DNA of 31,327 nt from Clostridia bacterium (GTDB taxonomy: Bacteria; Bacillota; Clostridia; HGM11514): assembly GCA_045594525.1 (NCBI GenBank), contig JAZNYR010000132.1, forward strand, positions 1 to 31,327, written 5' to 3'. A model generated the notes under the pieces. The model was not told where the DNA came from and made no database searches. It was given only the letters and a program-made list of their open reading frames with translations. The position numbers were made by a program, and so were the translations under genes. Shown piece by piece: positions 9,370-27,079 of the stretch (within the stretch, counting starts at the first letter, position 1; each line of letters opens with the position of its first letter).

Positions 9370-9398
9370 TTGATAAAATTCGGAAAATATGATATGAT
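9370..9398 (+). promoter_or_regulatory. Sigma-A promoter of candidate ncRNA 1
   Basis: TTGATA-N17-TATGAT with extended -10 (TGaTATGAT); the predicted start (~9404-9405) coincides with the first base of the closing stem. Confidence 0.75.
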
Positions 9399-9403: not shown

Positions 9404-9611
9404 TGCTAAACATAACTTAATATCATTTTGGGTAGGAATATTTTATGGGAATAATATATTCTTTCTTTTTCATACTATCTCTTAGACTTTTGCAAAAAAT
9501 GCAAATCTCCTTAGAGGTAGTATGGTTTCATTCCTACTCTTATTTAAGTTATGTTTAGCAACAGACGAGGTTTGCGTTTTTTATGCGTTGGCTTCGGCTG
9601 GCGCATTTTTT
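9404..9611 (+). ncRNA. Candidate structured ncRNA 1 (rod-shaped, homologous to 26848-27013)
   Basis: 17-bp perfect closing stem (9404-9420 / 9544-9560), 10-bp stem (9430-9439 / 9530-9539), 15-bp stem (9471-9485 / 9510-9524), terminator 9583-9611 with cUUCGg loop; G-U pairs work only on the + strand. Confidence 0.75.
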
Positions 9612-9634
9612 ATTGAGAAAAGAAGGAATGATTT

Positions 9635-10027
9635 ATGGTAAAATGTGTTTTAATAGGCGACGATATGACTTGTTTGGATACGGATGCAACGATTCGGATT
9701 GAGCGCCACATAGAAAACTTGATCAATCAGCACCAATCCATTGCATTTTATTACTCGCCAACCGATTTTTTTGGCATTTTTTGTAAATTGACCGTTGAAA
9801 GTACGATAAGACTTTATCATAATAAAACCATTTTAAAGTTTGAAGGAAAAATCACATCAAAAATAATAGAAGAAGCCAATTTTTGTATTACCTGTATTCC
9901 TCGGGAAACATTCTGTCCGGATATTGTGAATCAAATAGACAAAAGAAAGGCACAAGGATTGTTGGAAGAATTTGATACCATTCGTTCCTATGTGGAACCG
10001 GATTGGGAAAAGGTATTTCTTTTATAG
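9635..10027 (+). CDS. Hypothetical protein, possibly a divergent SLOG (YpsA/DUF1273-like) fold
   Basis: RBS AAGGA; N-terminal KCVLIGD resembles the xCxFxGH start of clostridial SLOG proteins, followed by ENLINQ..FYY and IIEEANFCIT. Weak similarity judged by eye only. Confidence 0.6.
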   Translation: MVKCVLIGDDMTCLDTDATIRIERHIENLINQHQSIAFYYSPTDFFGIFCKLTVESTIRLYHNKTILKFEGKITSKIIEEANFCITCIPRETFCPDIVNQIDKRKAQGLLEEFDTIRSYVEPDWEKVFLL

Positions 10028-10058
10028 AACATCATATTTTACAATTTTTTACTTACAA

Positions 10059-10097
10059 GAGGAAGTAGCGATTTTTTTGCTACACCCTCTTTTTTTT
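10059..10097 (+). terminator. Intrinsic terminator after the 130-aa gene
   Basis: Imperfect stem gagg..gtagc / gctac..cctc followed by a T run. Confidence 0.6.
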
Positions 10098-10117
10098 AAA
10101 ATTTTTTCCTATATTGG

Positions 10118-10146
10118 TTGATGTATTGGAAAATTTATGGTATAAT
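10118..10146 (+). promoter_or_regulatory. Sigma-A promoter of the secA operon
   Basis: TTGATG-N17-TATAAT with extended -10 (TGgTATAAT). Confidence 0.75.
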
Positions 10147-10221
10147 AAGATGATAGATATTTTATCTTCTCTTCCTGCGGAGAATTTTCAGAAATTAGCA
10201 GGAGAAGGGAAAGGAAATCAC

Positions 10222-12969
10222 ATGTTTAAAGCATTAGTTGAAAAGGTAATCGGCACCTATTCAGAGCGTGAAATCAAGCGGATTATCGGTACAGTAGATA
10301 AAATTGAAAGCTTAGAAGAAGAATACAAAGGGTTAACCGATGAAGAATTAAAAGCAAAAACCCCTTATTTAAAAGATCGGCTTGCAAAGGGAGAAACCTT
10401 AGATGACATTCTCCCCGAAGCCTTTGCAACAGTACGGGAGGCAGCTTGGCGTGTGCTGGGAATGCGTCATTTCCGCGTACAGCTCATGGGCGGTATTATC
10501 CTGCATCAGGGAAGAATTGCTGAAATGAAAACAGGGGAAGGAAAAACTCTGGTGGCAACCCTGCCCTCCTACTTAAATGCCTTAACGGGCAAGGGGGTAC
10601 ACATTGTTACAGTCAACGACTATCTTGCCAAGCGTGACAGCGAGTGGATGGGAAAAATCCATGAATTTTTAGGGTTAAAGGTAGGTCTGATTGTAAACGG
10701 GCTGGACAAAAACGAACGGAAAGAAGCTTACGAGGCGGACATTACTTACGGCACCAACAACGAATTTGGGTTTGACTATTTGAGAGATAACACCGTCATT
10801 TACAAAGAACGAATGGTGCAAAGAGGTCATTACTTTGCCATTGTGGACGAAGTGGACTCTATTTTGGTGGACGAAGCAAGAACTCCTTTGATTATTTCGG
10901 GTCAAGGAGATAAATCCAGCGAATTATATACTCAGGTGGATGCCTTTGTCCGGGGCTTACAAAAAACCAAGGTGATTGAGCTGAATAACAAGGAATCCCA
11001 GGACGACATGGAAGGGGATTATCTGGTGGATGAAAAAGCAAAAACCGCCACCCTAACCCCTGCGGGCACCAAAAAGGCAGAACGGTATTTCGGTGTGGAA
11101 AATTTAACCGACCCGGAAAACATTTCTCTCCTTCATCACATCAATGTTGCCATCCGTGCTTACGGCATTATGCAACGGGACATTGACTATGTGGTAAAAG
11201 ACGGGCAAGTGCTGATTGTGGATGAATTTACAGGCCGTATCATGAACGGCAGACGGTACAGCGAGGGTCTGCACCAGGCAATCGAAGCCAAGGAGCATGT
11301 GAAAATTGAAAACGAAAATAAGACTTTAGCAACCATCACCTTCCAGAATTATTTCAGACTATATGAAAAACTGTCAGGTATGACAGGGACTGCCCAAACA
11401 GAAGAAACGGAATTTCAGCAGATTTATAAGCTTGATGTTGTGGCAATTCCCACCAACAAGCCTGTGGCAAGAAAAGACCTGCCCGACCTGATTTATAAAA
11501 ACGAAGCAGGAAAATTCCGAGCAGTCATTCAGGATATTATTAAAACTCATCAAAAGGGTCAGCCTGTGCTGGTGGGTACCATTTCCATTGAAAAATCAGA
11601 GCTTTTGAGCCGTGAATTAAAGCGGGCGGGTGTGAAGCACGAAGTGTTAAACGCAAAGCACCATGAACGAGAAGCCCAGATAGTTGCCCAGGCGGGAAAA
11701 CCCGGTGCGGTTACCATTGCTACCAACATGGCAGGGAGAGGTACCGACATTGTGCTGGGCGGCAACGCAGAATTTATGGCAAGAAGTGAATTAAAACGGT
11801 TAGGCTTTTCTGAAAGCGCCATTTTGGAGGCAGACGGAAACGGGATTACAACAGACGAAGAAGTACTGGAGGCAAGAAAAACTTTCCATGAGCTGACCGA
11901 AAAATACAAGGAAGAGTTAAAACCGGAACGGGATGCGGTATTAGAGGCAGGCGGTCTTTATATCATCGGCACCGAACGGCACGAAAGCCGACGGATTGAC
12001 AATCAATTAAGAGGTCGTTCCGGCCGTCAGGGTGACCCGGGTCAGTCAAGATTTTATCTTTCTCTGGATGACGACCTGATGCGTCTGTTTGGCTCGGATA
12101 AAATGAAAACCATGGTCGAGGCCATGGGCTTAAAAGACGATGAGGCAATTGAAAACGGACTTCTGACCAAGCAGATTGAAGCCGCTCAACGAAGAGTGGA
12201 AGGCAGAAACTTTGACATTCGTAAAAATGTGTTAAACTACGACGATGTGTTAAATGTACAGCGTCAGAAGGTTTATTCGCAACGGCAACAGGTGTTGGAT
12301 TGTGCGGACATTCATGATAATGTAAAACGGATGATGCGGGATGTAATTACTGATTTTGTTCAGATGCACACCGCACAAAGCAACTACCCTGAAGAATGGG
12401 ATTTAAAAGCAATCATTGAGCATTTTGAATCTCTGTTCTTACAACCCGGTCAACTGACCTTTACCAGACAGGAAATTCAGGAGCTGACCAAAGATAGTCT
12501 CATTAACACTCTGGTAGAAGAAGCCTATGCGGCTTATGACAAAAAGGAACAGGAATCAGGAAGCGAAGTTCTCCGTGAATTTGAACGGGTGATTTTACTC
12601 CAGATTGTGGATAAAAACTGGATTGAGCATATTGAAAACATGGAGCAATTAAAGCAAGGCATTTTCCTTCGCGCCTTTGCCCAGCACGATCCTCTTGTGG
12701 AATACAAAATGGAAGGATCGGATATGTTTGACGAAATGAATGACAATATCCGCCGTGAAATGGTGGAAATGGCATTCCGTGTCCGCATTAAGCAAAATAT
12801 TCAAAGAGAGCAGGTTGCCTCCCCTGTGGAAAGCTCTCACGGTACAGGGGGAGAAAAGGTCAGCCGCACGGTTGTAAAGGCGCCCAAGGTAGGAAGAAAT
12901 GATCCCTGTCCCTGCGGTTCGGGCAAAAAGTATAAAAAATGCTGCGGAGCATCCGCAAGTGATGAATAA
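10222..12969 (+). CDS. secA: Preprotein translocase ATPase SecA
   Basis: [10 protein letters not shown] Walker [46 protein letters not shown]-terminal SEC-C motif [18 protein letters not shown]; start moved to ATG 10222 (AAGGA upstream). Confidence 0.98.
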
Positions 12970-13001
12970 AGAAAGCGAATGAAGTAAAAGGAGTTGATAA
13001 T

Positions 13002-14115
13002 ATGTTAGAGTTCGACGAATCCCGCTTGACCTTGGCGGGTATGGAACAAGATATCAATGATTTGAGGGATTCACTTTGACGTTGCAGGCTTAAAAAAGCA
13101 GATTGCTGCATTGGAAGAACAGACCGTTCAACCCGGATTTTGGGATGATATGGAAAATTCCTCAAAAATTCTGCAAAAAACCAAGGGGTTAAAAGACCGT
13201 GTTGCCGCTTTTGAAGAATTGGACAACACCTGGCAGGATTTGACCGTTTTGGTGGAAATGGCAGATGAAGAGGAAGATTTATCCGTTTTAGATGAGGTAA
13301 AAAGCGGTGTTTCTTCTTTGATCGAACGGTTGGAACAGATGAAACTGGATACCCTTCTTTCCGGCCCCTATGACAAGAACAATGCCATTGTAACCCTTCA
13401 TGCAGGGGCAGGCGGAACGGAAGCTCAGGACTGGGCGGAAATGCTGTTCCGTATGTATGTCCGCTGGGCAGAACGCCGCGGATTTACCACAGAAACTCTA
13501 GATTTCCTTGCAGGAGATGAAGCAGGAATCAAGAGTGTTACCTTTATGATTTCAGGCTTAAATGCTTATGGCTATTCAAAAGCAGAAAAAGGGGTACACC
13601 GTCTGGTGCGTATCTCTCCTTTTGATGCTTCAGGACGGCGACACACCTCTTTTGCCTCCTTGGAAGTCATGCCCGAGCTTGATGACGATGTGAAAATTGA
13701 CATCAATCAAGACGATTTAAAAGTAGATACTTACCGTTCCAGCGGTGCGGGAGGGCAGCACATTAACAAAACCGACTCTGCCATCCGCATCACCCACATT
13801 CCCACAGGAATTGTGGTGGCTTGTCAGAACGAACGGTCACAGCACAAAAACCGTGATATTGCAATGAAAATGCTGATGGCAAAGCTGTTGGAATTAAAGG
13901 AACAGGAAAACAAGGAAAAAATCGAGGACTTGAAGGGCGAACAAAAGGAAATTGCCTGGGGCAGTCAGATTCGCTCCTATGTGTTCCATCCCTACAACCT
14001 GGTCAAGGACCACCGTACAGGCTTTGAAATGGGCAACATCGGCGCGGTTATGGACGGGGATTTGGACGGTTTTGTCAACGCTTATCTGAAGCAAAGTGTA
14101 AATAAGGGAGAATAA
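13002..14115 (+). CDS. prfB: Peptide chain release factor 2 (programmed +1 frameshift; join 13002-13076, 13078-14115)
   Basis: 25-codon leader MLEFDESRLTLAGMEQDINDLRDSL ends in CTT-TGA-C; the +1 frame contains the SPF recognition motif and GGQ. Confidence 0.97.
13065..13080 (+). other. RF2 programmed +1 ribosomal frameshift site
   Basis: AGGGAT-TCA-CTT-TGA-C: internal Shine-Dalgarno-like element 3 nt before the shifty CTT TGA. Confidence 0.93.
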
Positions 14116-14118
14116 ACC

Positions 14119-15189
14119 ATGTTTGATAAATTAGCAGGTCTGGAAACAAAGTTTCTGGATTTAAGTGATAAAATCAATGACCCGGCAGTGATTGCCGACC
14201 AAAGCCAGTGGCAAAAATATATGCGTGAACACGCAGAGCTCAGTCCCATTGTAGAGGCCTATCGAAATTATCGTCAGGCAAAAGAAGAGGCAGAAGAGGC
14301 GGAAGAAATTCTTCGGGAGGAATCGGACGGGGAATTAAAGCAGATGGCACAGATGCAGTTGGAGGAAGCAAAAGCGACCATTGAAACACTGTCAGAAGAA
14401 CTGAAAATTCTGCTCCTTCCCAAGGACCCCAACGACAACAAGAATGTTATTATTGAAATCCGCGGCGGTGCGGGCGGGGATGAGGCGGCCCTCTTTGCGG
14501 CAGAGCTGTTTCGGATGTATGCCCTGTATGCAGAAAGCAAACGGTGGAAAAGTGAAGTCCTTTCTTCCAGCCCCACAGACATTGGGGGATACAAAGAAGT
14601 TTCCTTCAGTATTGAGGGGGCGGGTGCCTACAGCAAACTGAAATTTGAAAGCGGTGTTCACCGTGTACAAAGAATCCCTGCCACCGAATCAGGCGGACGG
14701 ATTCACACCTCTACCGTAACGGTAGCGGTACTGCCTGAAGTGGAAGAAGTGGAAGTAGAAATTAACCCTAACGACCTGCGGATTGATGTATTCCGTGCGG
14801 GAGGTCCCGGGGGACAGTGTGTTAACACCACCGACTCGGCAGTACGGATTACCCACCTTCCCACAGGAATCGTGGTTTCCTGTCAGGATGAAAAATCACA
14901 ACACAAAAATAAAGATAAGGCAATGAAAATTCTGCGTTCCCGTGTTTATGAGGAAGAGCAATCCAGACAGCACGCGGAAATTGCGGCAGAACGAAAAAGT
15001 CAAGTGGGAACAGGGGATCGAAGTGAACGAATCAGAACCTACAACTTCCCCCAAGGTCGTGTAACCGACCACAGAATCGGCTTGACTCTGCATAAATTAG
15101 AGGCCGTTTTAGGCGGTACTCTGGACGAAATTATTGACGCTCTGATTACAGAGGACCAGAGCAGAAAACTGGCAGCATCCGAAGAATAA
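14119..15189 (+). CDS. prfA: Peptide chain release factor 1
   Basis: [27 protein letters not shown] (PxT motif), [22 protein letters not shown]. Confidence 0.98.
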
Positions 15190-15213
15190 CAAACAGAAAG
15201 AAGATGGAGCAGT

Positions 15214-16257
15214 ATGCAAATCATTCGGGTAACAAATGAGTTTGACAAGCTGGAACCTGCAGCTCAAATCATCCGTCAGGGCGGATTGGTGGCATTTCCT
15301 ACCGAAACGGTGTACGGTCTTGGTGCCAATGCTTTTTTGGGAGAAGCCGTTGCAAACATATTTAAGGCCAAGGGCAGACCTTCGGATAATCCTTTGATTG
15401 TGCACATTTCAGACCTTTCTCAATTAGAGGATATTGTAAGCCATATTCCGGAAAAAGCAAAATTATTAATGGACCGGTTCTGGCCGGGTCCCCTCACTTT
15501 GATTTTGCCCAAAAAGGAAAACATCCCCGATGAAGTCACGGCGGGACTTTCTACCGTGGGAGTGCGGTTTCCCAAGCACCCTGTGGCACAGGCGTTTATT
15601 TCCATGGCAGGTGTTCCCATTGCGGCACCCTCTGCCAATACCTCAGGAAAACCAAGCCCTACCACTGCACAACATGTAATCGACGATTTGTTCGGCAAAA
15701 TAGATGCGGTGATTGACGGTGGAGCTGCCAATGTGGGCTTAGAATCTACCATTGTGGATGTAAGCGGGGAAATTCCCGTTCTTCTTCGTCCGGGGGGCAT
15801 TACCTATGAACAGCTTTGTGAAGTATTAGGAGAGGTTGCCTTAGGGCAAAGTGTAACCGAGCAGTTATCGGCAAATGCAACTGCCATTGCACCGGGAATG
15901 AAATACCCTCATTATTCCCCCAATGCCCAAGTCATTGTGTTAAAAGGAACGGATGAGGCGCTAATCCGTTATATCAATCAGCAAATCAGAAATCAGCACA
16001 GTCTGGGAAAAAGGGTGGGTGCTATGGTTTATACCCAGATTTTACCCCATATTCTCCAGGCAGATGTGCTGTTATCCTTAGGAGATATTCACCACCGTTC
16101 TTCCGCAGCGGCACATTTATTTTCCTACTTGCGTACCTTTGATGAACAGGGAGTAGAGGTTGTGTACGCCCAGGATTGCGGCGAAACAGGCATCGGCCTT
16201 GCCATTTCCAATCGTTTGAACAAAGCGGCAGGATACGAAATTGTAGAGGTAAACTAA
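15214..16257 (+). CDS. sua5: L-threonylcarbamoyladenylate synthase (Sua5/YwlC type, YrdC + SUA5 domains)
   Basis: VAFPTETVYGLGANA, KGRPSDNPLIVH, AAPSANTSGKPSPT, APGMKYPHYSP. Confidence 0.95.
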   Translation: MQIIRVTNEFDKLEPAAQIIRQGGLVAFPTETVYGLGANAFLGEAVANIFKAKGRPSDNPLIVHISDLSQLEDIVSHIPEKAKLLMDRFWPGPLTLILPKKENIPDEVTAGLSTVGVRFPKHPVAQAFISMAGVPIAAPSANTSGKPSPTTAQHVIDDLFGKIDAVIDGGAANVGLESTIVDVSGEIPVLLRPGGITYEQLCEVLGEVALGQSVTEQLSANATAIAPGMKYPHYSPNAQVIVLKGTDEALIRYINQQIRNQHSLGKRVGAMVYTQILPHILQADVLLSLGDIHHRSSAAAHLFSYLRTFDEQGVEVVYAQDCGETGIGLAISNRLNKAAGYEIVEVN

Positions 16258-16661
16258 TGAATGTATTGTTTGTTTGTACCGGAAACACCTGCAGAAGTCC
16301 CATGGCGCAGGCGATTTATGAGCATATTACAGGAAACAAAGCCAAATCGGGCGGTTTAGGGGTATCGTCCCCTCAGCCTGTCAGCGAGTACGCTCTTGCG
16401 GCGTTAGAAAACATGGGCATTAACGGCTTTTCTCATCTTTCTTATCAGATTACTCCCAAAGATGTAGAGGAGGCAGATGTAATTTATGTAATGACCAAAA
16501 TGCACAAACAAATTTTGGTTACCGTCTGCCCCGAATATGCAGATAAGATTCGTCTTTTGGGCGGGGAGCGGGACATCGCAGACCCTTACGGCGGGTCGTT
16601 ACAGCAGTATTTGTCTTGCTGTGAAGAAATCGAAAGCTGCATTCGGAGAGAGTTATGTTAA
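16257..16661 (+). CDS. ywlE: Low-molecular-weight protein phosphatase, YwlE-type arginine phosphatase
   Basis: P-loop CTGNTCRS (Thr variant characteristic of arginine phosphatases), DIADPYGG; ATG overlaps the sua5 stop; same order as B. subtilis ywlC...ywlE. Confidence 0.8.
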   Translation: MNVLFVCTGNTCRSPMAQAIYEHITGNKAKSGGLGVSSPQPVSEYALAALENMGINGFSHLSYQITPKDVEEADVIYVMTKMHKQILVTVCPEYADKIRLLGGERDIADPYGGSLQQYLSCCEEIESCIRRELC

Positions 16662-17107
16662 TTTTTGAAGCAACGAAAGAACATTTACAAACACTTCATG
16701 AAATTGAGCAGGTTTGTTTTTCCCATCCCTGGTCAAAAGATTCCCTGTTGTCAGAGCTTACTTCTCAAAACACCGTTAGTCTGGCGGTAAAAATTGAGGA
16801 AGAAATAGCGGGTTTTTGCTTTTTGTCTGTCATTGCAGGGGAAGGAACGGTGTTGCAAGTGGCAGTTTTGCCTGCGCACAGAAGAAAAGGATTGGGAAAA
16901 CAGCTGACCGCTTCTGCCCTACAACAGGCAGAAGAAAGAGGGGCAGAGGTTGTTTTTTTAGAAGTCCGAGTCAGCAATGCTGCTGCCAAAGGTCTGTACG
17001 AATCTCTTGGATTTAAAGAAATTGCCGTCAGAAAAGGATATTATCGAGACGGAGAAACAGCAATTATTATGCAATGGAGGAAACAAAATGAAAATTCTGG
17101 CAATTGA
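16655..17107 (+). CDS. rimI: Ribosomal protein N-acetyltransferase RimI (GNAT)
   Basis: HPWS, QVAVLPAHRRKGLG, FLEVRVSNAAAKGLYESLGF, RKGYY; directly upstream of tsaD. Confidence 0.88.
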   Translation: MLIFEATKEHLQTLHEIEQVCFSHPWSKDSLLSELTSQNTVSLAVKIEEEIAGFCFLSVIAGEGTVLQVAVLPAHRRKGLGKQLTASALQQAEERGAEVVFLEVRVSNAAAKGLYESLGFKEIAVRKGYYRDGETAIIMQWRKQNENSGN

Positions 17108-18083
17108 GTCTTCCTGCGACGAAACTGCCGCAGCGATAGTGGAGGACGGAAGAAAGGTACTGAGTGATATTATCGCATCTTCCGCAGAATTGCATAAATT
17201 ATACGGCGGCGTGGTTCCCGAAATTGCATCCAGAAAACATCTGGAATGTATTTCTCAAGTGGTAAATGAGGCTTTGTCTCAGGCAAAGATTACTTTTCAT
17301 GAAATTGATGCCGTTGCCGTCACCTACGGCCCCGGCTTAATCGGCGCCTTGTTAGTGGGCGTTTCTTATGCGAAGGCTTTGGCCTTTGCCTTACAAAAAC
17401 CGTTGGTGGCGGTGCATCACATTAAAGCACATTTGGCCGCCAATTATATTGAACACCCTGATCTGACCCCTCCCTATGTGGGATTGGTAGCATCGGGAGG
17501 GCACAGCCATATTGTGTACGCCTCTGATTGGGTGGATTTTGAAGTACTGGGAAGAACCCGTGATGATGCGGCAGGGGAAGCCTTTGACAAGGTGGCAAGA
17601 ACCATCGGCCTTGGGTATCCGGGAGGTCCTTTATTGGAGCAACTGGCACGAGAAGGAAATCCTCACGCGTACGAGTTTCCCAGAGTGCAGTTTGATAATT
17701 TTGATTTTAGCTTCAGCGGTGTGAAAACCGCTGTCATTAATACCATGCACAAAGCAGAGCAAAAAGGAGAAACCATTAACACAGCTGATGTGGCGGCATC
17801 CGTTCAGTGTGCGGCGGCAGATGTTTTGGTTGCTCATACGCTTGCGGCGGCAAAAGAAAAAGGCGTCAAAACCGTTGTAATGGCAGGGGGCGTTTCTGCC
17901 AACGGTTATTTACGCCAACGGTTTACAGACGCATGTAAGGAACAAGGTTTTACCTTCCTTTGTCCTCGACCCAGATATTGTACGGATAACGGGGTGATGG
18001 TTGGTGCAGCCAGCTTTTTTATGGCACAAAAAGGAGACTTTTGCTCCCTGGACGAAAATGCATACGCCACATTGCCATTCTAA
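17088..18083 (+). CDS. tsaD: tRNA N6-adenosine threonylcarbamoyltransferase TsaD
   Basis: LAIESSCDET, YGGVVPEIASRKH, GPGLIGAL, HHIKAH, SGGH, TRDDAAGEAFDK, FSFSG, CTDNG; start moved to ATG 17088 (GGAGG upstream). Confidence 0.97.
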   Translation: MKILAIESSCDETAAAIVEDGRKVLSDIIASSAELHKLYGGVVPEIASRKHLECISQVVNEALSQAKITFHEIDAVAVTYGPGLIGALLVGVSYAKALAFALQKPLVAVHHIKAHLAANYIEHPDLTPPYVGLVASGGHSHIVYASDWVDFEVLGRTRDDAAGEAFDKVARTIGLGYPGGPLLEQLAREGNPHAYEFPRVQFDNFDFSFSGVKTAVINTMHKAEQKGETINTADVAASVQCAAADVLVAHTLAAAKEKGVKTVVMAGGVSANGYLRQRFTDACKEQGFTFLCPRPRYCTDNGVMVGAASFFMAQKGDFCSLDENAYATLPF

Positions 18084-18180
18084 TGTTATGTAAACCACAG
18101 AAAATGGAAATAAAAGGATATAAAAAAACCCTATTTTTGCATAAAAATTCAAGAAAATGGAAAAGTTTTCTTTAAAAAAA

Positions 18181-18332
18181 TGTGGATAACTTTAAAAAGA
18201 TTAGGAAAATTCACTCTTTGATTGTGGATAACTTTGTGGATATGTTGATTACTTTTGCAAAAAACAGCCTATTTTTAAAAAATCTGTTTTCTTGTGGTTG
18301 ATTTTTTTTGACCACAAGATATAGTATCCACC
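18181..18332. promoter_or_regulatory. DnaA-box cluster (plus one NrdR-box-like 16-mer) upstream of rex
   Basis: Perfect TGTGGATAA at 18181 and 18223; one mismatch at 18235; two mismatches at 18243, 18293 and 18324; CCACAAGATATAGTAT at 18312-18327. Confidence 0.65.
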
Positions 18333-18394
18333 AAAAATAAATAGAAAAAATTTACAGAAAAAAGAGGTTAACATAATAATTTGGAGGTATGGAG

Positions 18395-19036: not shown

Positions 19037-20004
19037 CAGATTTATGCAATCCCTCATTTTTCCATGGAGTTTGTGAATGGGAAGAAAGCGAAAACGGGGT
19101 ATCTATCACCCGTTTGCCCAAAAAAGTACTGGATTGGTATCAACACCAAAACGAAAATTGGTATAAGTATGCCTGCTGTTATTCAGGGATTCGTTTGGAA
19201 ACAGAAACCAACGCCACATCCCTGACCTTCTCTTTGGAATATGAAAACGGAACCCCTGCGTTTGCAAGCTTTGGTTTGATGATTGACGGGCAGGTTCAGC
19301 CTGTGATTTCTCTCACCGCAGAGGAGTTAAGCAATCCTGTTACCATTCCTCTGGACGGACAAACGCATCGAGTGGTTGTTTATTTTCCCCACCTCATTTC
19401 TTTTGTCATAAAAAGTGCCGTGGCAGAGGGTGATGCCAAGCCCATAGAACCAAAGAAACAACGATATTATGCCTTTGGTGATTCCATTACGCAAGGTTCC
19501 ACGGGAGAAAACCCGTGCTTTACCTATCCGGCTCAGCTTGCCAGATGCTTTGATTTAGAATTTTGGAATTTCGGTGTTTGCGGACTTCGTTTTCGGGAAG
19601 GAACTCTTGACGGAATCGAAGCTCTTCCTACTCCTGATTTTGTTACCGTGGCTTTGGGTACCAATGATTTTACGGACGGCAGAACGGAAAATATGTCTTC
19701 CTTTTTGAAAAGCTGTGCAGGCTATTTGAAAAAAATTGATGCCATGTATCACAATGTTCCCACCTATATTCTTCTTCCTATCTGGAGAACAGACGAAATG
19801 CAATCGGTAAAACGAGGCAACTTACAAAACATTCGGGACAACATTACCCGTATTGTCGAGTTTTATCCTAATATGACAGTGATTGACTGTCAGGATATGA
19901 TTCCTCACGACGAGAAATTTTATGATGACGGACTTCATCCAAACAGCGAAGGATTTCTCCATTACGGAAAAAATTTATGCGAAGCTTTGAAGGAAAGGCT
20001 GTGA
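19033..20004 (+). CDS. SGNH/GDSL-type hydrolase with N-terminal beta domain
   Basis: Blocks FGDSITQG, ALGTND and DGLHPN. Confidence 0.88.
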   Translation: MTDLCNPSFFHGVCEWEESENGVSITRLPKKVLDWYQHQNENWYKYACCYSGIRLETETNATSLTFSLEYENGTPAFASFGLMIDGQVQPVISLTAEELSNPVTIPLDGQTHRVVVYFPHLISFVIKSAVAEGDAKPIEPKKQRYYAFGDSITQGSTGENPCFTYPAQLARCFDLEFWNFGVCGLRFREGTLDGIEALPTPDFVTVALGTNDFTDGRTENMSSFLKSCAGYLKKIDAMYHNVPTYILLPIWRTDEMQSVKRGNLQNIRDNITRIVEFYPNMTVIDCQDMIPHDEKFYDDGLHPNSEGFLHYGKNLCEALKERL

Positions 20005-20011
20005 AATCGGT

Positions 20012-20575
20012 ATGGAAACCAATGCACTTGGGATTACCCACCGTTATATGAAGCAGGTCATCGGTCTCGGTGACCATGTCATAGACGCCACTGCGGGAAA
20101 CGGTCATGACACTCTGTTTATGGCCCAGCTTGTGGGAGAGGAGGGGCACATTACCGCCTTTGATATTCAACCTCAGGCACTGGAAAACACCAAAAAAAGA
20201 CTGAAAAATGCAGGAGTGGATGCCCGTGTGACCCTGATCCAGGACGGTCATCAGAATATGAAACAGTATGTCAAAGGGCCTGTAAAAGCCGTCACCTTTA
20301 ATTTCGGATACCTCCCCGGAGGAGACCATAACATCTGCACCCATGCAGATACCAGCATTGCCGCCATTTTAGCAGCCTTGGAGCTAATTTCGGAGGACGG
20401 TATGGTATTGCTGGGGATTTATTACGGCGGTGACAGCGGATTTGAGGAAAAAGATGCCTTAATGGCGTTTTTAAAAACCTTGAACCCTCATGAATACAGC
20501 GTGCTGTGCCATGATTTTATCAATTATCCCAACTGTCCGCCCTTGGCGGTCAGAATTATTAAGGAGAGGCGTTAA
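20012..20575 (+). CDS. mnmM: Class I SAM-dependent methyltransferase, YtqB/MnmM family (tRNA mnm5s2U34 methyltransferase)
   Basis: IDATAGNGHDT, FDIQ, FNFGYLPGGD, YYGGDSGFEEK, FINYPNCPP. Confidence 0.8.
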   Translation: METNALGITHRYMKQVIGLGDHVIDATAGNGHDTLFMAQLVGEEGHITAFDIQPQALENTKKRLKNAGVDARVTLIQDGHQNMKQYVKGPVKAVTFNFGYLPGGDHNICTHADTSIAAILAALELISEDGMVLLGIYYGGDSGFEEKDALMAFLKTLNPHEYSVLCHDFINYPNCPPLAVRIIKERR

Positions 20576-21846
20576 TGGAAACAGAACAAAAACGGTTAAC
20601 CGCCATTCTGGTGGGACTAAACACCGGAGGACGGGATTTGTTAGAAGAGTCCACCACACAATCCATGGAAGAACTGGAAGCTCTGGCTGATGCGGCAGAA
20701 GTGGACACGGTTGCAGTTGTGATGCAAAACCGCCAGACGGTAGAGGCAGCAACCTATATTGGCCCCGGAAAATTACAGGAGGTTTGTGAACTTTGCCAAA
20801 GTTTACATCCTGATTTTTTGCTGTTTGACGACGAACTGTCCGGTTCTCAAGTTCGAAATATTGAAGAGGCTTCAGGGGTAACGGTCATTGACCGAAGCCG
20901 TCTGATTTTAGATATTTTTGCCGGCCGTGCCACCTCCAGAGAGGGAAAATGTCAGGTCGAGCTGGCACAATTACAATATTTACTGCCCAGACTGTCCGGT
21001 GTGGGTGCTTCCATGTCCCGTCAGGGGGCAGGAATCGGCACAAGAGGTCCGGGAGAAACCCGACTGGAAACAGACCGTCGGCACATCCGCACCAGAATTG
21101 CCAAATTAAAAGAAGATTTAAAAGAGATTGAACAGCATCGCCGCACAAGGCGCAGTAAGCGGTTAAAAGAAGGCATTCCCCAAGTGGCGCTGGTGGGCTA
21201 TACCAATGCAGGAAAATCCACCTTATTAAACTGTCTGACAGATGCGGGTACCTTTGCAAAGGATCAACTGTTTGCAACCCTGGACCCTCTGGTAAAGCGA
21301 ATGGAGCTGGCAGAGGATTTTCCCATTGTGGTAACTGACACGGTAGGGTTTGTCCGAAAGCTTCCTCATCATCTGGTAGAAGCGTTCCGCTCCACCTTGG
21401 AGGAAAGCATTTATGCAGATGTAGTGCTCCATGTGGTAGATGCCTCCAATCCCGAATATTCCCTGCAAATGGAGGTAGCACAAAAGCTGCTGGCCTCTTT
21501 GGGCGTAAAAGAAAATGTAATTATTACAGTATTTAATCAAATTGATAAGGCTCAAGGGGAGCTTCCTCACATGGCAGACAGTGTGTGCATCTCTGCAAAA
21601 ACAGGGGAAGGTATCGAGGAGCTTTTGAATTTGCTTCGGAAACGGCTGGTTCCGGTGCGCAGAAGTGTAACGGTTTGTATCCCTTATTCGGAAGGAAAAA
21701 TTGCCGCCATGCTCCATGAAAAAACAAAGGTGGAGCAGGAGGAATTTACGGAAAACGGTCAGGTAATGAAGGTGGTGGCAGACCGAGAACTGATGTCCCT
21801 CCTCGCCCCTTATCTGACAGAGGAGGAAACGGATGAAGCCTTATAA
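20575..21846 (+). CDS. hflX: GTPase HflX
   Basis: IDRSRLILDIFA, QVELAQLQYLLPRL, GTRGPGETRLE, GYTNAGKST, LFATLDP, DTVGF, AFRSTLEE. Confidence 0.97.
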   Translation: METEQKRLTAILVGLNTGGRDLLEESTTQSMEELEALADAAEVDTVAVVMQNRQTVEAATYIGPGKLQEVCELCQSLHPDFLLFDDELSGSQVRNIEEASGVTVIDRSRLILDIFAGRATSREGKCQVELAQLQYLLPRLSGVGASMSRQGAGIGTRGPGETRLETDRRHIRTRIAKLKEDLKEIEQHRRTRRSKRLKEGIPQVALVGYTNAGKSTLLNCLTDAGTFAKDQLFATLDPLVKRMELAEDFPIVVTDTVGFVRKLPHHLVEAFRSTLEESIYADVVLHVVDASNPEYSLQMEVAQKLLASLGVKENVIITVFNQIDKAQGELPHMADSVCISAKTGEGIEELLNLLRKRLVPVRRSVTVCIPYSEGKIAAMLHEKTKVEQEEFTENGQVMKVVADRELMSLLAPYLTEEETDEAL

Positions 21847-22459
21847 AACCTTTGGACAAATTGCCGTGGCAGAGCTGGTAGAAAAGCGTTCCCGATTCAT
21901 TGCCCAAGCATTTCGGATTCAGACCGAGGAAGAGGCCATTTCTATTTTAAATGACATACGAAGCAAATACTGGGATGCCCGTCACCATGTCTATGCTTAC
22001 ACCGTACGGGAAAACAACATTACCCGCTTTTCGGATGACGGAGAACCTGCTAAAACCGCAGGACCGCCCGTGTTGGATGTGATTACCCGTGAGGATGTCA
22101 CGGACTGTATGATTGTGGTCACCCGTTATTTTGGCGGAACCTTGTTGGGTGCAGGAGGGTTGGTAAGAGCCTACGGAAAAAGTGCCAAAATGGCATTGGA
22201 TGAAGCGACGGTAATTACTATGACGCCCTGCGTTCAGTATTGTGCCACCGTTGGCTACGGAGATTGGGGAAAGTTTCAGAATGTACTGAAAAATTTGGGA
22301 GCATCTTCTCCCGAAGGAGAGTTTGGAGCAGAGATTACCGCAAGCTTTTGGATTCCACTGACCGAGGAAGAAAGAGCCTTGGCAGAACTGACCGAGCAGT
22401 TTAACGCTCTCATTGTTCCCCAAAAAATACAGGAAGATTTTTTTTGCTTGGAAAACTAA
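21833..22459 (+). CDS. YigZ/IMPACT family protein
   Basis: EKRSRFIA, ARHHVYAY, SDDGEP, VVTRYFGGTLLGAGGLVRAY. Confidence 0.92.
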   Translation: MKPYKTFGQIAVAELVEKRSRFIAQAFRIQTEEEAISILNDIRSKYWDARHHVYAYTVRENNITRFSDDGEPAKTAGPPVLDVITREDVTDCMIVVTRYFGGTLLGAGGLVRAYGKSAKMALDEATVITMTPCVQYCATVGYGDWGKFQNVLKNLGASSPEGEFGAEITASFWIPLTEEERALAELTEQFNALIVPQKIQEDFFCLEN

Positions 22460-22565
22460 AAGAGGATATAAAAATCTCCAGACCGCAAAGTGATCAATAA
22501 AAAAAAGATGATCAAAAATTTTGCTACCCCTTTTAGAAAACTGTTTTGAAAGAAGGAAGGATATT

Positions 22566-22712
22566 ATGGAACCCAAAAAATTGTTTCCCACCGCCCCTTT
22601 GGGGTTTGATAAAAAGGCTGTTATCGCCTATATTGAACAGCTAAATCTTGCTTATGAGGAAGAGCTGAAAAAGAAAGATGAACTGATTCAACAATTACAA
22701 GAAAATAAATAA
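22566..22712 (+). CDS. 48-aa DivIVA/GpsB N-terminal-domain-like protein
   Basis: RBS AAGGAAGG; LFPTAPLGFDKKAVIAYIEQL resembles the DivIVA motif F..xxxGY/F..xxVxxxL, followed by a short coiled coil. Confidence 0.6.
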   Translation: MEPKKLFPTAPLGFDKKAVIAYIEQLNLAYEEELKKKDELIQQLQENK

Positions 22713-22750
22713 AAGACCCGCAAGGAACAATTCCTTGCGGGTATATTTTT
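22711..22750. terminator. Bidirectional intrinsic terminator
   Basis: 12-bp stem acccgcaaggaa-caa-ttccttgcgggt with A-rich and T-rich flanks between convergent genes. Confidence 0.85.
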
Positions 22751-24980
22751 ACCTTTCATCTGCCGGTAACTCTATAGGTGCTTGAGGCACAATGGGTTGT
22801 TCCGGCACAGGGACAGGATTCTCGGGGGTTTGATTACCCGGTGTCTCTTCCGGTGCAGGTGATTGGGGAGAGGGTGTTTCCTCCGGAAGGGTAACAGGTG
22901 TTTCAGAAGGTTCAGGTGAATCAGAAGGTTCTTCCTCTTCGCCTTCCTCTCCTTCTTCTCCCTCTTCATCTTCATCCTCGTCTTCGTCTTCCTCGTCCTT
23001 TTCTTTCTCTTCTTTTGCTTCGCTATTGATAGCCAAGTTATAATTTACATTAGAAGGCCATTCAAAATCACGGGGTGCCAAACCGAGTTCGCTATGCACC
23101 CGACGCATAACAGTTCCCCAGATAGAAGTACTGATGCCGTCAAATGTGTATTGATACAAATCCTTCGGCTGGTCGAATCCGCACCATACTGCTCCTGCAT
23201 AGTAAGGAGAAGTACCACAGAACCAAAGGTCATGAGCATTATCTGTTGTTCCCGTTTTTCCTAAAGAGGAAATTCCGTTTCCAAGCCATGCTGCAGTACC
23301 GGTACCGCTTGTGACAACAGAACGCAGACAGCTCATCATCATAGCATTGTTTTCGGGACTAAACACATAGGTTTCTTCCACCGTTTTTTCCAGCAACACA
23401 TTTCCGTCCGCATCCAACACCTTCGTATAGGTATGAGGAGTCAAATGCGTGCCGTTATTTGCAAAAGTTGCATAAGCTGCTGTCATTTCTTTTACGGTTA
23501 CACCATCGGTCAAACCGCCCAATGCCAGACCGGCAAGGTGTTTGTCTGTATGAACGAAACCGTCCTCCGCTTTTCTTGAATCAACTAAAGTAGAGAAATG
23601 GAACCGTTCTGTCATGTAATCAAAGGAAGTTTCTACTCCCAACATCTGCAATGTTCTTACTGCAACAATGTTAATAGAACGGGCAACGGCATTACGAACG
23701 CTGACTGCCCCCGAGAAAGAAAAGTCATAGTTATTGGGTTTCCAGCTTCCCACGGTAATGGGTTTATCAATAATAATGGTTCCCGGACCGATGAGTCCTT
23801 CTTCCATAGCAGGGCCGTAAACCGCAATAGGCTTAATGGTGGACCCTGGTTGACGGGTGGTCTGGGTGGCACGGTTTAAGGTACGATTGCTTTCCTTGTT
23901 TCCGCGACCGCCGATCAGCGCTTTGATTTCGCCGGTATAAGGATCCATAATAACCATGGAGGATTCCATCTGTTCTTTCCCCGAGGGAGTACCGAAATTG
24001 GAATCATCCGCATATTCTTCCTCCAGAATCGTTTGAATTCTGGCATCCATGGTGGTATAAATCTTCAAACCGCCGTTATAAAGCAGCTTTGCTGCATAGT
24101 TGGGAGCATACCCCTTTTCTTCCTGCAAATCCTTCAGCACTTCGTCAATCACCGCATCGACAAAATAGGACTGAATCTGATTTTCATCGTTGTCCCCTCC
24201 GCCGAAGGTGATTTCATAAGCCAAAGCTTCTTCGTATTCTTGTTCCGTGATATAATCCAGCTCCAGCATTTTTGCCAGAACTACTTTCTGCTTGGTCAGG
24301 TTTGCTTCCGGGTTTAAGATAGGGTCATACTGGGTGGGATACTGGGTAATTCCCGCCAATGATGCAGCTTCCGCCAGATTCAGCTCGCTGACATCCTTTC
24401 CGAAATAAGTATATGCTGCGGTTTTCACACCGTTACAGCCCTGTCCCAGATAAATGGTATTCAAATACAATTCCAGAATGCTTTCTTTATCCATTTGCTG
24501 TTCTAACTGAATGGCACGGATAATTTCACGCAACTTACGGCTGACTACCGCTTCATCATCCCCTGTCAGGTTCTTAATCAACTGCTGGGTGATGGTACTT
24601 CCGCCGTAGGAATTATCGCTTTTCATCACATAATTCAATGCTGCACCGATGAACCGCTTTAAGTCAAAACCCTTATGGCTCCAAAAGCGTTCATCTTCAA
24701 TAGCAACAATGGCATCTTTCAGATAAGGGGAAATATCCTCCATGTCTGCCCAGATACGGTTTTCCGTTCCTGACAGTTGATGATATTCCACATCGTTACC
24801 GTTTTCATCTGTATAATACAGAAAAGATGTAAAATTCAAGTTGATATCGTCTGTATTAAACTCTGTAAATACATCATTGGTAGTCAGCATAATTGCCCCT
24901 ACCGTACATCCTGCAAGGATAGACAGAATCAACACAAAGATCAGCAAGAATTTTAAAAATATTTTGACTGACCGTTTCAT
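22749..24980 (-). CDS. Class A penicillin-binding protein (PBP1A family) with acidic, Pro-rich C-terminal tail
   Basis: N-terminal TM; transglycosylase motifs EDERF, GGSTITQQL, RKLREI; transpeptidase STIK, SIN, KTGT; start moved to ATG 24980 (GGGGG upstream). Confidence 0.95.
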   Translation of the reverse strand: MKRSVKIFLKFLLIFVLILSILAGCTVGAIMLTTNDVFTEFNTDDINLNFTSFLYYTDENGNDVEYHQLSGTENRIWADMEDISPYLKDAIVAIEDERFWSHKGFDLKRFIGAALNYVMKSDNSYGGSTITQQLIKNLTGDDEAVVSRKLREIIRAIQLEQQMDKESILELYLNTIYLGQGCNGVKTAAYTYFGKDVSELNLAEAASLAGITQYPTQYDPILNPEANLTKQKVVLAKMLELDYITEQEYEEALAYEITFGGGDNDENQIQSYFVDAVIDEVLKDLQEEKGYAPNYAAKLLYNGGLKIYTTMDARIQTILEEEYADDSNFGTPSGKEQMESSMVIMDPYTGEIKALIGGRGNKESNRTLNRATQTTRQPGSTIKPIAVYGPAMEEGLIGPGTIIIDKPITVGSWKPNNYDFSFSGAVSVRNAVARSINIVAVRTLQMLGVETSFDYMTERFHFSTLVDSRKAEDGFVHTDKHLAGLALGGLTDGVTVKEMTAAYATFANNGTHLTPHTYTKVLDADGNVLLEKTVEETYVFSPENNAMMMSCLRSVVTSGTGTAAWLGNGISSLGKTGTTDNAHDLWFCGTSPYYAGAVWCGFDQPKDLYQYTFDGISTSIWGTVMRRVHSELGLAPRDFEWPSNVNYNLAINSEAKEEKEKDEEDEDEDEDEEGEEGEEGEEEEPSDSPEPSETPVTLPEETPSPQSPAPEETPGNQTPENPVPVPEQPIVPQAPIELPADER

Positions 24981-25091
24981 AGTAAACCCCCAATTCAATC
25001 TGTATCTGTTATTATATCTTGTCTTACCTTATATTATAGCACAAATTCCGGATTTTTTGTTTAAAATTGTGTTACATTTTTCTTAATATTT

Positions 25092-25120
25092 GTATAAAAA
25101 CGGGGAAAAAATGAAAACTA
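25092..25120 (+). promoter_or_regulatory. Possible forespore sigma (F/G-like) promoter
   Basis: GTATA-N17-AAAACTA resembles GHATR-N17/18-CATWHTA; lies upstream of a bofC-like gene. Confidence 0.4.
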
Positions 25121-25142
25121 AAGAAAGAAAGGTGTGATCGTT

Positions 25143-25670
25143 ATGAAAAAACCAACATTTCTTCTCGTTTGTGTCACAGGATTGATGTTGGGATTTGGCA
25201 CAGCAAAATTTCTGACTCCCTCTCCCGCCATACTGCAAAAAGCTGCCGCCACTCCCACACAGATACCCGTTTCTCAAACTTCTGTCGTGACAGAAGATTC
25301 CCGTCTTTTGGTGCGTTACAGTTTTGGCGGATGTGGCCATTTTACCCTAAATGAAGAACCTTTGCCTGCTTCCTGGATAGGAAAGGAAGCCGCATCCCTT
25401 TCCTTGCCCGGTACATTATTTGAAACCTTTGAAGAAAACACTCTTTATCTGGCAAAAATCAGTCAGAAAAAATGTGATTGTCATTTTGTTCTGACCGCAC
25501 AGGGGAACGAGCTGGTGGTCACCTATCAGAATGACCCCTCGAAAGTGCGGGATCGTCACAGTTTTCGTCCCCAGTTATTGTCTGAAACAGAGCTTCAAAA
25601 ACTGCAGGCGGGAATTTATCTGGATTCCGAAGAAGAATTAACCCGCCTGTTAGAGGATTATTGCAGTTGA
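25143..25670 (+). CDS. BofC C-terminal-domain-containing protein
   Basis: N-terminal hydrophobic/signal segment; C-terminal LQKLQAGIYLDSEEELTRLLEDYCS fits the BofC_C pattern; RBS AAGGTG. Confidence 0.7.
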   Translation: MKKPTFLLVCVTGLMLGFGTAKFLTPSPAILQKAAATPTQIPVSQTSVVTEDSRLLVRYSFGGCGHFTLNEEPLPASWIGKEAASLSLPGTLFETFEENTLYLAKISQKKCDCHFVLTAQGNELVVTYQNDPSKVRDRHSFRPQLLSETELQKLQAGIYLDSEEELTRLLEDYCS

Positions 25671-25695
25671 CTTTTTTCCAAAGGCACTATATAAT
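25667..25695 (+). promoter_or_regulatory. Sigma-A promoter of the alpha/beta hydrolase
   Basis: TTGACT-N17-TATAAT; the -35 overlaps the upstream stop codon. Confidence 0.75.
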
Positions 25696-25726
25696 AGGAG
25701 GGAGAAAATGAAAGGAGTTTTGACTT

Positions 25727-26560
25727 ATGATTCATAAAATCATTCCTTTAAGCGAAACCAATCAAGAGGTATATCTGGAAGTGTTCGTAGCAAATAAATT
25801 GGGCGAATTTGTCCGCGATGCTCTCCTGGTCATTCCCGGAGGAGGCTATGAAATGGTTTGCAACCATAATGAAGGAGAACCTATTGCTCACGCCTTTTTG
25901 GCAAGGGGATACAACACTTTTGTTCTTCACTATTCCATTGGAGAGCATGCCGTTTTTCCTCAACCTCTGATTGAAGCTTCCCTGGCGGTCAAACATATCA
26001 AAGACCACGCAGAGGAATACAACATCAACCCCGACCGCGTCTTTGGCTGCGGATTTTCTGCAGGAGGACACCTGTGCGCCTCCTTGGGAACCCTGTGGCA
26101 TTTGCCCGAAATTTATGAAAGGGCAGAAATCCCTTACGGTTCCAACAAATTAGCGGGTATGCTCAACATTTATCCTGTGATTTCCGCTTTGGTTCCCGGA
26201 ACACACATGCCAAGCTTCCATCGTATTTTAGGAACCGAATCCCCCTCACAAGAAGAACTGGCGCGGTATTCTCTGGAGCTTCGGGTAAGCGAAAACACCG
26301 TTCCTGCTTTTGTGGTACATACCATAGTGGACCAAACCGTATCAGTTGCCAATTCCTTGGTTTTTGCCCGGGCTTTAACCGATCACAATATTCCTTGTGA
26401 AGTACATATTTATCCCAAAGGTGCTCACGGTTTTTCTCTCGCCACCGAATGGACTGCCGAAGGATATACAGAGAAAATCAATCCAACCAATGCCAAGTGG
26501 GTTGATCTGGCTAATGACTGGATGAAATCAGTTGATACAGCACCGCACCATTGCAAATAA
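25727..26560 (+). CDS. Alpha/beta hydrolase (esterase/lipase)
   Basis: Oxyanion PGGGY, nucleophile GFSAGG, acid DQTV, His in HGFSL. Confidence 0.9.
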   Translation: MIHKIIPLSETNQEVYLEVFVANKLGEFVRDALLVIPGGGYEMVCNHNEGEPIAHAFLARGYNTFVLHYSIGEHAVFPQPLIEASLAVKHIKDHAEEYNINPDRVFGCGFSAGGHLCASLGTLWHLPEIYERAEIPYGSNKLAGMLNIYPVISALVPGTHMPSFHRILGTESPSQEELARYSLELRVSENTVPAFVVHTIVDQTVSVANSLVFARALTDHNIPCEVHIYPKGAHGFSLATEWTAEGYTEKINPTNAKWVDLANDWMKSVDTAPHHCK

Positions 26561-26774
26561 TGGCAACCGGTACCAAAATGCGAAATTTTAACTGTCTTGT
26601 TTTATGACGAAAGACTATCATACCAAGCCCTGCTCCCAAGCCACCCAGAAAAAAGGCGCACAGGAGCAGGGTTTTTTCGCTGATTCTCCACTCGTATGCC
26701 TCTGCTCTTTGCTTATCCCGTCCGTATAGCAAAAAAACGATTAAGTTCCATAATATAAACACAATTTTTAGCAT
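26511..26774 (-). CDS. DUF1294 family small membrane protein
   Basis: YGRDKQRA...WRISEKTLL..AFFLGGLGA.LGM..FRHKT signature; start moved to ATG 26774 (AAAGGAG upstream). Confidence 0.88.
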   Translation of the reverse strand: MLKIVFILWNLIVFLLYGRDKQRAEAYEWRISEKTLLLCAFFLGGLGAGLGMIVFRHKTRQLKFRILVPVAIICNGAVLYQLISSSH

Positions 26775-26814
26775 CTTCGGGCTCCTTTCAATCCTTTTTT
26801 CAAATACGAAAATA

Positions 26815-26843
26815 TTGACTATTGTAGCAATATGTGATATAAT
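26815..26843 (+). promoter_or_regulatory. Sigma-A promoter of candidate ncRNA 2
   Basis: TTGACT-N17-TATAAT with extended -10 (TGaTATAAT); no credible + strand CDS follows before a terminator. Confidence 0.8.
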
Positions 26844-26847
26844 GTTT

Positions 26848-27013
26848 TTACCACACAAATCAAATAAGGTATATTTCAAGAGAATGTTTTTGTTTTCGCA
26901 AAAAAATGCATTCTCCATTTGTGCATTCCTTGTGATATGCCAAATGATTTGTGTGGTAACAAACAGGAGTAATGCATTTTTTGGTGCATCGACTTTTGTT
27001 GATGCACTTTTTT
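26848..27013 (+). ncRNA. Candidate structured ncRNA 2 (rod-shaped, homologous to 9404-9611)
   Basis: 15-bp perfect closing stem (26848-26862 / 26945-26959), about 17-bp inner stem (26868-26886 / 26924-26941), terminator 26984-27013. Confidence 0.75.
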
Positions 27014-27052
27014 ATTTTTGCACTCTGTTTCAAAGGTTGCTACATACTTTTG

Positions 27053-27079
27053 AAAAATCCGCCTATACGGCGGTTTTTT
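27053..27079. terminator. Terminator-like hairpin
   Basis: aaaaat-ccgcc-tatac-ggcgg-tttttt. Confidence 0.5.

Follow-up and report, generated by a model that had tools for sequence, protein, structure and literature searches.

Comparison with described attenuators and structured RNAs

The pyr leaders of Bacillus subtilis (PyrR) and the S-box or SAM-I leaders each combine an intrinsic terminator, an antiterminator built on the 3' strand of that terminator, and an upstream helix that shares the 5' strand of the antiterminator. The same arrangement is described here for a family of RNAs, two members of which, RNA1 and RNA2, are encoded on the + strand of a 31,327-nt stretch of DNA from a Clostridia bacterium (positions 1 to 31,327 of contig JAZNYR010000132.1, assembly GCA_045594525.1), referred to below as the window; all coordinates without another source are positions in it. 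In each RNA a conserved motif at the apex of a long, rod-shaped fold (motif B) is complementary to a tail (B') that lies between the rod, which is closed by stem P1, and the terminator (T2). The helix formed by apex and tail is, on balance, likely to serve as the anti-antiterminator of a three-tier attenuator, in a leader or small-RNA family that is widespread and uncatalogued. As in the pyr and S-box systems, the leader is promoter-proximal and lies directly before a gene. In SAM-I the anti-antiterminator is the aptamer helix P1, whereas here it would be a pairing of about 16 bp between rod apex and tail, rather than a local hairpin or an aptamer-closing stem. The family also differs from both systems in being multi-copy, in forming tandem arrays and in preceding unrelated accessory genes, and it shows no recognisable PyrR site, ligand pocket or leader peptide.

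Riboswitches of the ZTP (pfl), c-di-GMP-II, preQ1-II and SAM-II classes likewise have a loop-tail helix whose 3' strand is shared with the terminator or antiterminator decision, and c-di-GMP riboswitches in Clostridia also occur in many copies per genome before surface and accessory genes. Unlike these pseudoknot riboswitches, the present family has no Rfam match, a variable rod interior and a far longer helix, and no conserved ligand pocket was identified in it. T-box leaders, which are multi-copy leaders of Firmicutes, are similar in placing a long hinged stem ahead of an antiterminator and terminator; here, however, there are no T-box or specifier motifs and no Rfam hit, and the bridge is a direct RNA-RNA pairing instead of a tRNA. 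The phi29 pRNA and the ROOL, GOLLD and OLE RNAs resemble the family in having complementary segments that a rigid fold might keep from pairing in cis, but in the family there is no partner specificity among paralogues and no link to a packaging motor, and the pairing overlaps a terminator switch.

The apex-tail helix of RNA1 and RNA2

Direct reading of the RNA1 sequence shows that the apex motif at 9494-9509 (AAAAAAUGCAAAUCUC) pairs with the tail at 9567-9582 (GAGGUUUGCGUUUUUU) through 16 bp, two of which are G-U. In RNA2 the apex motif at 26901-26916 pairs with the tail at 26966-26982 through 16 Watson-Crick pairs and one bulged U. Both arm pairs were independently recovered by an automated repeat search, as 9494-9509/9567-9582 and 26901-26912/26971-26982, the second of which reaches 26916/26966 beyond the 1-nt bulge. 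The duplex energies calculated with RNAduplex were -17.4 kcal/mol for RNA1 and -17.0 kcal/mol for RNA2. Shuffling the whole tail gave means of -4.2 and -3.5 kcal/mol, respectively, and none of 2000 shuffles matched the observed energy. When the U run was held fixed the observed value was reached by 1 of 2000 shuffles for RNA1 and 4 of 2000 for RNA2, indicating that the pairing is more than an A run meeting a U run. A preliminary description of the window had reported this 16-bp pairing in both RNAs, and the direct reading, the repeat search and the shuffle controls confirm it. It had also proposed that each apex is matched to its own tail. This is true of the two RNAs compared with each other, as cross-pairing of RNA1 with RNA2 gave -14.5 and -12.3 kcal/mol against -18.5 kcal/mol for each own pair in a separate comparison of paralogues, but it does not extend to the paralogues in general, which are not orthogonal.

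Distribution and architecture of the RNA family

RNA1 and RNA2 belong to a widespread, uncatalogued leader or small-RNA family of gut Clostridia. Using BLAST, followed by a covariance model built from the part of the RNA between apex and terminator, 12 copies were found in this genome (81% complete, 1.4 Mb), two of them in tandem. The model also matched 15 of 41 relatives and 40 of 150 sampled genomes of the class (27%), the latter spread over 27 of 107 genera and containing as many as 18 copies each. An exact 21-mer made up of the P1 3' strand, the linker that joins rod and tail, and the GGAG that follows it is present in at least 120 contigs of species genomes, nearly all of them gut metagenome-assembled genomes labelled Acutalibacteraceae, Oscillospiraceae, Ruminococcaceae, Faecousia, Monoglobus or Christensenellaceae. 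It is present as well in at least 120 gut metagenome contigs, which are DNA assemblies only and inform on distribution only. Two unannotated "Bacteriophage sp." records from human faeces (uncultured gut phage) hold the tail and terminator module, at 468-531 of MT835503.1 and 2150-2230 of MT835845.1. A search of Rfam 15 gave no match at the gathering score and, up to E = 10, nothing above chance level. The literature yielded no paper on the family; the conserved motif strings occurred in none, and surveys of new bacterial noncoding RNAs did not mention it. The family is very common in uncultured gut Clostridia and absent from Rfam.

Family members are RNAs of 150-220 nt with their own strong promoter at the start and an intrinsic terminator at the end. 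From 5' to 3' they comprise the promoter, P1, a bulge or junction, a distal stem, an apical region with motif B, the 3' arm, the linker, B' and the terminator. P1 starts at the first or second transcribed base in 105 of 113 units, with varied pair types, and the same extended -10 box lies 5-6 nt upstream of the first paired base in nearly all homologues. The length of the 5' arm is bimodal, at about 50 or about 90 nt: short forms carry a conserved 5-nt A/U bulge beyond P1, and in long forms an internal loop leads into a three-way junction that bears a small conserved hairpin. The distal stem is variable in sequence and always stable. The consensus of motif B is UAAAAAUGCAnnCUCU and that of B' is GGAGnnUGCGUUUUU. 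The linker, with consensus GACAAUC, is conserved in sequence and is 6-7 nt long in 81 of 105 units. Between B' and T2 there are 0-3 nt, and T2 has a C(UUCG)G-type loop and a U run.

The conserved junction hairpin of the long forms (approximately GGGAUAnUAUACCC; 9447-9463 in RNA1) is flanked by U runs. A role in docking or binding is possible, and the hairpin region might conceivably form a U-A-U triplex with the A run of the apex.

Tandem arrays of 2-4 units were found at loci L029 (G008:C6 110895-111681), L042, L028, L044 and L022. Each tandem unit has its own near-identical promoter and terminator around an unrelated rod, giving conserved ends and a diverged middle, and only the last unit of an array precedes a gene.

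Conservation of the apex-tail helix

Alignment of 45 homologues to the covariance model gives 95.3% pairing in the apex-tail helix, with changes on both sides in 9 of 15 pairs; one position, for example, is C-G in 16 sequences, U-A in 16 and U-G in 11. Sliding the register lowered pairing to 32-71%. With a scored structure consisting of the apex-tail helix together with the terminator, none of 500 shuffles attained the observed values. Runs of A5-6 and U5-6 flank the helix in more than 95% of members. Two members (L087 and L109) lack homopolymer A and U runs, yet pairing is kept, in one as GGGAAC...GUUUCC and in the other as an 8-bp plus 4-bp version, which suggests that it is the helix and not the U tract that is maintained. 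B and B' lie 40-70 nt apart, and 93 of 113 units fall in the range 45-59 nt. The median apex-tail energy across the family is -17.6 kcal/mol, and the helix is equally strong in units with an adjacent gene (-17.7 kcal/mol) and in units without one (-17.5 kcal/mol).

The apex-tail pairing is a genuine and conserved long-range helix with the topology of a pseudoknot relative to the rod. The order of its strands, P1 5', B, P1 3' and B', is that of an H-type pseudoknot. Loop 3 is too short to span stem 1 in a coaxial arrangement, since a linker of 6-7 nt faces a rod of about 35 bp.

The apex motif was originally presented as a free apical loop, and this picture needs correction, because a local decoy hairpin engages about half of the motif (median 53%). 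The pairing differs between the two forms: in the short one a U-run strand (GUAUUUUU) takes up the A-run half of B, so that CUCU stays exposed, and in the long one GAAUUUG is paired to CAAAUUC, with the A run remaining in the loop. In the window the decoy hairpin has -5.9 kcal/mol in RNA1, where 9500-9505 of the apex motif pairs with 9489-9494, and -11.7 kcal/mol in RNA2, where the decoy strand (B'', 26880-26895) pairs with 26900-26915. The decoy strand resembles the tail, and from the pairing pattern the hairpin looks like a fourth tier that would offer an exposed toehold for strand displacement.

The A-run motif of the apex is also complementary to the last stem bases and the U tail of the terminator (26900-26911 with 27002-27013; 9494-9502 with 9602-9612), because the tail and the 3' end of the terminator resemble each other. 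This pairing, which amounts to 9 bp in RNA1, was rejected as a functional helix, as members whose terminator ends in GCGCAC do not conserve it and as it would come too late to act before termination.

The tail as a strand shared with an antiterminator

Minimum free energy folds of full-length family members often do not contain T2. Instead, the linker and the GGAG(U) at the start of the tail pair with the loop and 3' strand of T2. In RNA1 this antiterminator (9558-9604) is formed by 9558-9572 with 9590-9604 and has -19.4 kcal/mol, compared with -13.0 kcal/mol for T2 alone (9583-9612 including the U run; a 10-bp stem with a UUCG loop), and it is the minimum free energy fold of RNA1. When the 3' module was folded without the apex, the antiterminator was the minimum free energy structure in 92 of 113 members (81%), against 2.7% when the 5' part was shuffled, and its median gain over the terminator-only state was -7.4 kcal/mol.

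Both competing structures show covariation among 120 sequences. The consensus register of the antiterminator is 90% paired, with 7 of 10 pairs changed on both sides. Shuffles gave 3.5 +/- 1.2 such pairs and were as good in 3 of 500 cases, and slid registers were 18-50% paired. In 11 sequences the first G of GGAG is changed to A jointly with a C to U change in the terminator. The terminator itself is 96.6% paired, and all 10 of its pairs covary. In the upper stem of T2 the 5' strand varies (A-U or G-U, C-G or U-G) and the 3' strand is constant, the behaviour expected if that strand serves two partners. Variation is also seen in the UUCG loop, in the form UNCG; selection for a tetraloop would fit this equally well. 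Members with divergent terminators (contigs C28 and C74; loci L031, L047 and L048) were read by eye and keep their own tail-to-terminator complementarity.

In RNA2 an antiterminator-like pairing of 26964-26970 with 26992-26998 has -12.3 kcal/mol, against a minimum free energy of -17.9 kcal/mol, and the terminator (-16.3 kcal/mol) dominates over it. The antiterminator was present in 89% of units with an adjacent gene and in 70% of those without, a weak trend given the crude calling of open reading frames (ORFs).

In RNA1 the apex-tail helix and the antiterminator have nucleotides 9567-9572 in common. The pairings of apex with tail, of linker and tail with the 3' half of the terminator, and of the terminator with itself are therefore mutually exclusive helices. 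Energetically, the apex-tail helix plus terminator roughly balances the rod plus antiterminator.

A probable three-tier attenuator

Since the apex-tail helix takes up 9567-9572 of the antiterminator, T2 would win once that helix forms, and the helix would then be an anti-antiterminator. With apex and tail paired, the antiterminator strand would be locked, the terminator would form, and transcription would stop with release of the rod RNA. With the apex unavailable, the antiterminator would form first and RNA polymerase would read into the gene 14-33 nt downstream. A free tail may give the antiterminator a head start, as GGAG could capture the T2 loop together with the last stem base while the 3' strand of T2 is still untranscribed. 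The apex itself may be held by the local decoy hairpin, or by a factor or ligand. We infer that pairing takes place in cis on the nascent RNA, that the helices follow this kinetic order, and that a signal controls the availability of the apex.

The elements of an attenuator are present in RNA1, which fits the model in full: an intrinsic terminator lies between promoter and ORF, an antiterminator shares a strand of the terminator, and a further helix shares a strand of the antiterminator (9567-9572). The second element is present across the family, and in RNA2 in a weak form only. The idea of a switch, put forward in the preliminary description, is thus supported, but the switch differs from those proposed there, as the other partner of the tail is the loop and 3' strand of the terminator. 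If this reading is correct, it would show a rod-to-tail pseudoknot driving an attenuator, and the apex-tail helix, as the switching element, would be a concrete handle for finding the signal.

Whether the helix can form in cis depends on the shape of the rod. It had been argued that the short linker forbids this while the rod is intact, and for a straight rod the steric point holds; it is not compelling, since a bent rod would reach. Our geometric estimate used 2.8 A per bp, approximately 6 A per single-stranded nt, 14 bp for P1 and 21 bp for the distal stem, and suggests that the apex would be able to reach the tail if the rod were bent by about 65-90 degrees at the conserved 5-nt bulge. For long forms, the three-way junction can presumably act as the hinge. 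The narrow range of spacing and linker lengths fits a defined cis fold, and the linker is also constrained by the antiterminator.

Several points weigh against an attenuator. The alignment of 45 homologues used to score the helix was fitted to the model, and 77 of the 120 sequences in the antiterminator counts had been fetched with a pattern that fixes the linker, so that its conservation is inflated. RNA2, its paralogue on contig C17 and some upstream tandem units combine a perfect apex-tail helix with a weak antiterminator and no gene after it; this leaves room for a role of the helix in the finished RNA, in addition to the control of termination or in its place. With a linker of 6 nt and a rod of about 35 bp, the coaxial stack of a classical H-type pseudoknot is impossible, and formation in cis would require the rod to bend, which the estimate above makes plausible. 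Finally, no signal or partner was found among the candidates examined, namely a leader ORF, T-box features, a NusG paralogue and Hfq.

Alternative explanations

The main rival to the attenuator is a structural pseudoknot of a stand-alone small RNA, in which the helix would shape or stabilise the finished rod, for instance by stacking on the terminator, and the antiterminator would be secondary or incidental. Each unit has its own strong promoter and terminator, tandem arrays exist, and the helix is as strong without an adjacent gene (-17.5 kcal/mol) as with one (-17.7 kcal/mol). RNA2 and the C17 copy, with no adjacent gene and a weak antiterminator, still keep 16 paired bases. This explanation is nevertheless unlikely, given the specificity of the antiterminator (81%, compared with 2.7% in shuffles) and its covariation, the position of most units 14-33 nt ahead of a gene, too close for another promoter to fit, and the absence of trans targets of the arms.

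Alternatively, the helix could be an intermolecular interface, with the tail of one RNA on the apex of another, giving antiparallel homodimers or chains, or enabling completed RNAs to act in trans on nascent transcripts. With a straight rod of about 35 bp the apex would lie roughly 100 A from the tail and the linker is only 6-7 nt, a homodimer would tolerate any rod length, and covariation is blind to whether pairing is in cis or in trans. The paralogues of this genome, however, are not orthogonal: the mean energy is -16.3 kcal/mol for own pairs against -12.4 kcal/mol for cross pairs, and only 3 of 11 apexes find their best partner in their own tail. Partner-specific interfaces like those of phi29 pRNA were thus not found among the 11 paralogues, and the pattern is one expected from compensated drift of a cis helix and not from an addressing system. 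The narrow spacing and linker, the conserved hinge bulge or junction, and the decoy with its exposed toehold also fit a defined cis fold, and the decision at the terminator, about 25 nt downstream, would leave little time for a bimolecular step. No observation calls for pairing in trans, and we consider an interface of this kind improbable. A similarly slim chance attaches to a self-sensing network, in which finished RNAs would pair with the nascent transcripts of the same or a sister unit, or act as antiparallel dimers; if it were true, the 10-18 units per genome would set the termination, and with it the expression, of dozens of accessory and surface genes by the RNA's own abundance.

Less probable again is that the A tract, stem and U tract form a first terminator (T1) or pause element upstream of the canonical one, the "large-loop terminator" of the preliminary description. 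The A5-6 and U5-6 runs flank the helix in over 95% of members, and a U tract is found in most, but the "loop" of 40-70 nt is held in the rod, and no compact hairpin directly precedes the U tract. Apart from a few members whose terminator region is odd (L075, L109), all have a canonical terminator after the helix, and L087 and L109 keep the pairing without homopolymer runs, which are therefore dispensable in these two members. The likeness to a terminator is formal only. The U run of the helix matches the T-rich motif of NusG-dependent pausing in Bacillus and, by analogy, may be a pause site.

The first of the earlier proposals had been a bistable fold: with the 5' arm missing or sequestered, the rod would open and display the 3' arm as an antisense or guide loop on the 16-bp stem. 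This is formally possible as a nested fold but very improbable. The nested fold is a median of 19 kcal/mol less stable than the rod (-48.0 against -73.0 kcal/mol in RNA1) and was rejected as an equilibrium state, the rod is transcribed and folded before the tail exists, and a search of the host genome for targets of the arms gave, for either arm, no complementarity beyond the 14-15-mers expected by chance.

Downstream genes and candidate signals

An ORF with a ribosome-binding site begins within 120 nt of T2 in 89 of 113 units, mostly 14-33 nt past the U run, which leaves no room for another promoter. The genes are unrelated and encode BspA-type leucine-rich repeat surface proteins, lipoproteins, and small membrane, zinc-ribbon, AbrB/MazE-like, XRE-type, SLOG-like and DUF4236 proteins. 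With a different accessory gene behind each unit, the family would mark a large co-regulated gene set, akin to an orphan riboswitch class. Among units of the same genus, those at L018:1627-1851, L030, L034, L044 and L051 precede AbrB/MazE-fold proteins of 70-79 aa (MKNEVDSLGRFVIP...) with a C-terminal CxxC...CxxC; these small regulators behind the leader are paralogous.

The candidates for a signal or partner were considered in turn. A leader peptide was rejected because no consistent leader ORF is present; read by eye, the first codons among members are AUG, UUG, GUG or none. A T-box-like UGGN in the apex was rejected because the apical UGGU is not conserved among members. NusG gave at most one match in each RNA-bearing genome searched and none in two incomplete ones (G000 and G003); with no second NusG-family gene in these hosts, a LoaP-type NusG paralogue is unlikely as an obligatory partner. 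Hfq had no match in five RNA-bearing genomes that are 94-100% complete (G013, G018, G021, G027 and G037), and its distribution does not fit that of an obligatory partner. An attC-like DNA hairpin was also considered for the GCCAAAC...GTTTGGC ends and rejected by eye, in view of the units' own promoter and terminator, the long-range covariation at the RNA level and the variable core.

Features of RNA1, RNA2 and their surroundings

The rods of both RNAs are very stable, with z-scores of the minimum free energy fold of -10.5 for RNA1 and -8.1 for RNA2, and their terminator stems are 10-11 bp long and followed by U runs. The predicted RNA1 promoter (9370-9398) consists of TTGATA, a 17-nt spacer and a TG-extended TATGAT, with a predicted start at about 9404-9405. 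The 5' strand of its closing stem P1 (9405-9420) pairs with 9544-9559. The interior of the 5' arm (9421-9493) contains an internal loop, the 5' strand of P2 (9430-9439), the junction hairpin, the 5' strand of P3 (9470-9482) and the decoy strand (9489-9494). The 3' arm (9510-9559) supplies the 3' strands of P3, P2 and P1, and the linker AACAGAC (9560-9566) is part of the 5' strand of the antiterminator. An ORF of 130 aa (9635-10027), which belongs to no Pfam family, starts 23 nt past the U run of RNA1, leaving no room for a promoter of its own, and is followed by secA at 10114.

The predicted RNA2 promoter (26815-26843) consists of TTGACT, a 17-nt spacer and a TG-extended TATAAT, with a predicted start at about 26849-26850. 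The 5' strand of P1 (26849-26862) pairs with 26945-26958, and T2 with its U run occupies 26983-27013. The next ORF is about 400 nt away. Approximately 75 nt directly after T2 (27013-27085) are conserved with the paralogous unit on contig C17, and this stretch ends in a second terminator-like hairpin (27059-27073 and a U run); read-through may give RNA2-type units a longer form, or they may carry a small additional module at the 3' end.

The window is ordinary chromosome, with feoB, secA, prfB, prfA, sua5, tsaD, rex, hflX and a class A penicillin-binding protein. The prfB gene (release factor 2) has a classical programmed +1 frameshift site, CTT TGA C, just before its long frame, and prfA (release factor 1) follows directly (13070-13115, 13111-15189).

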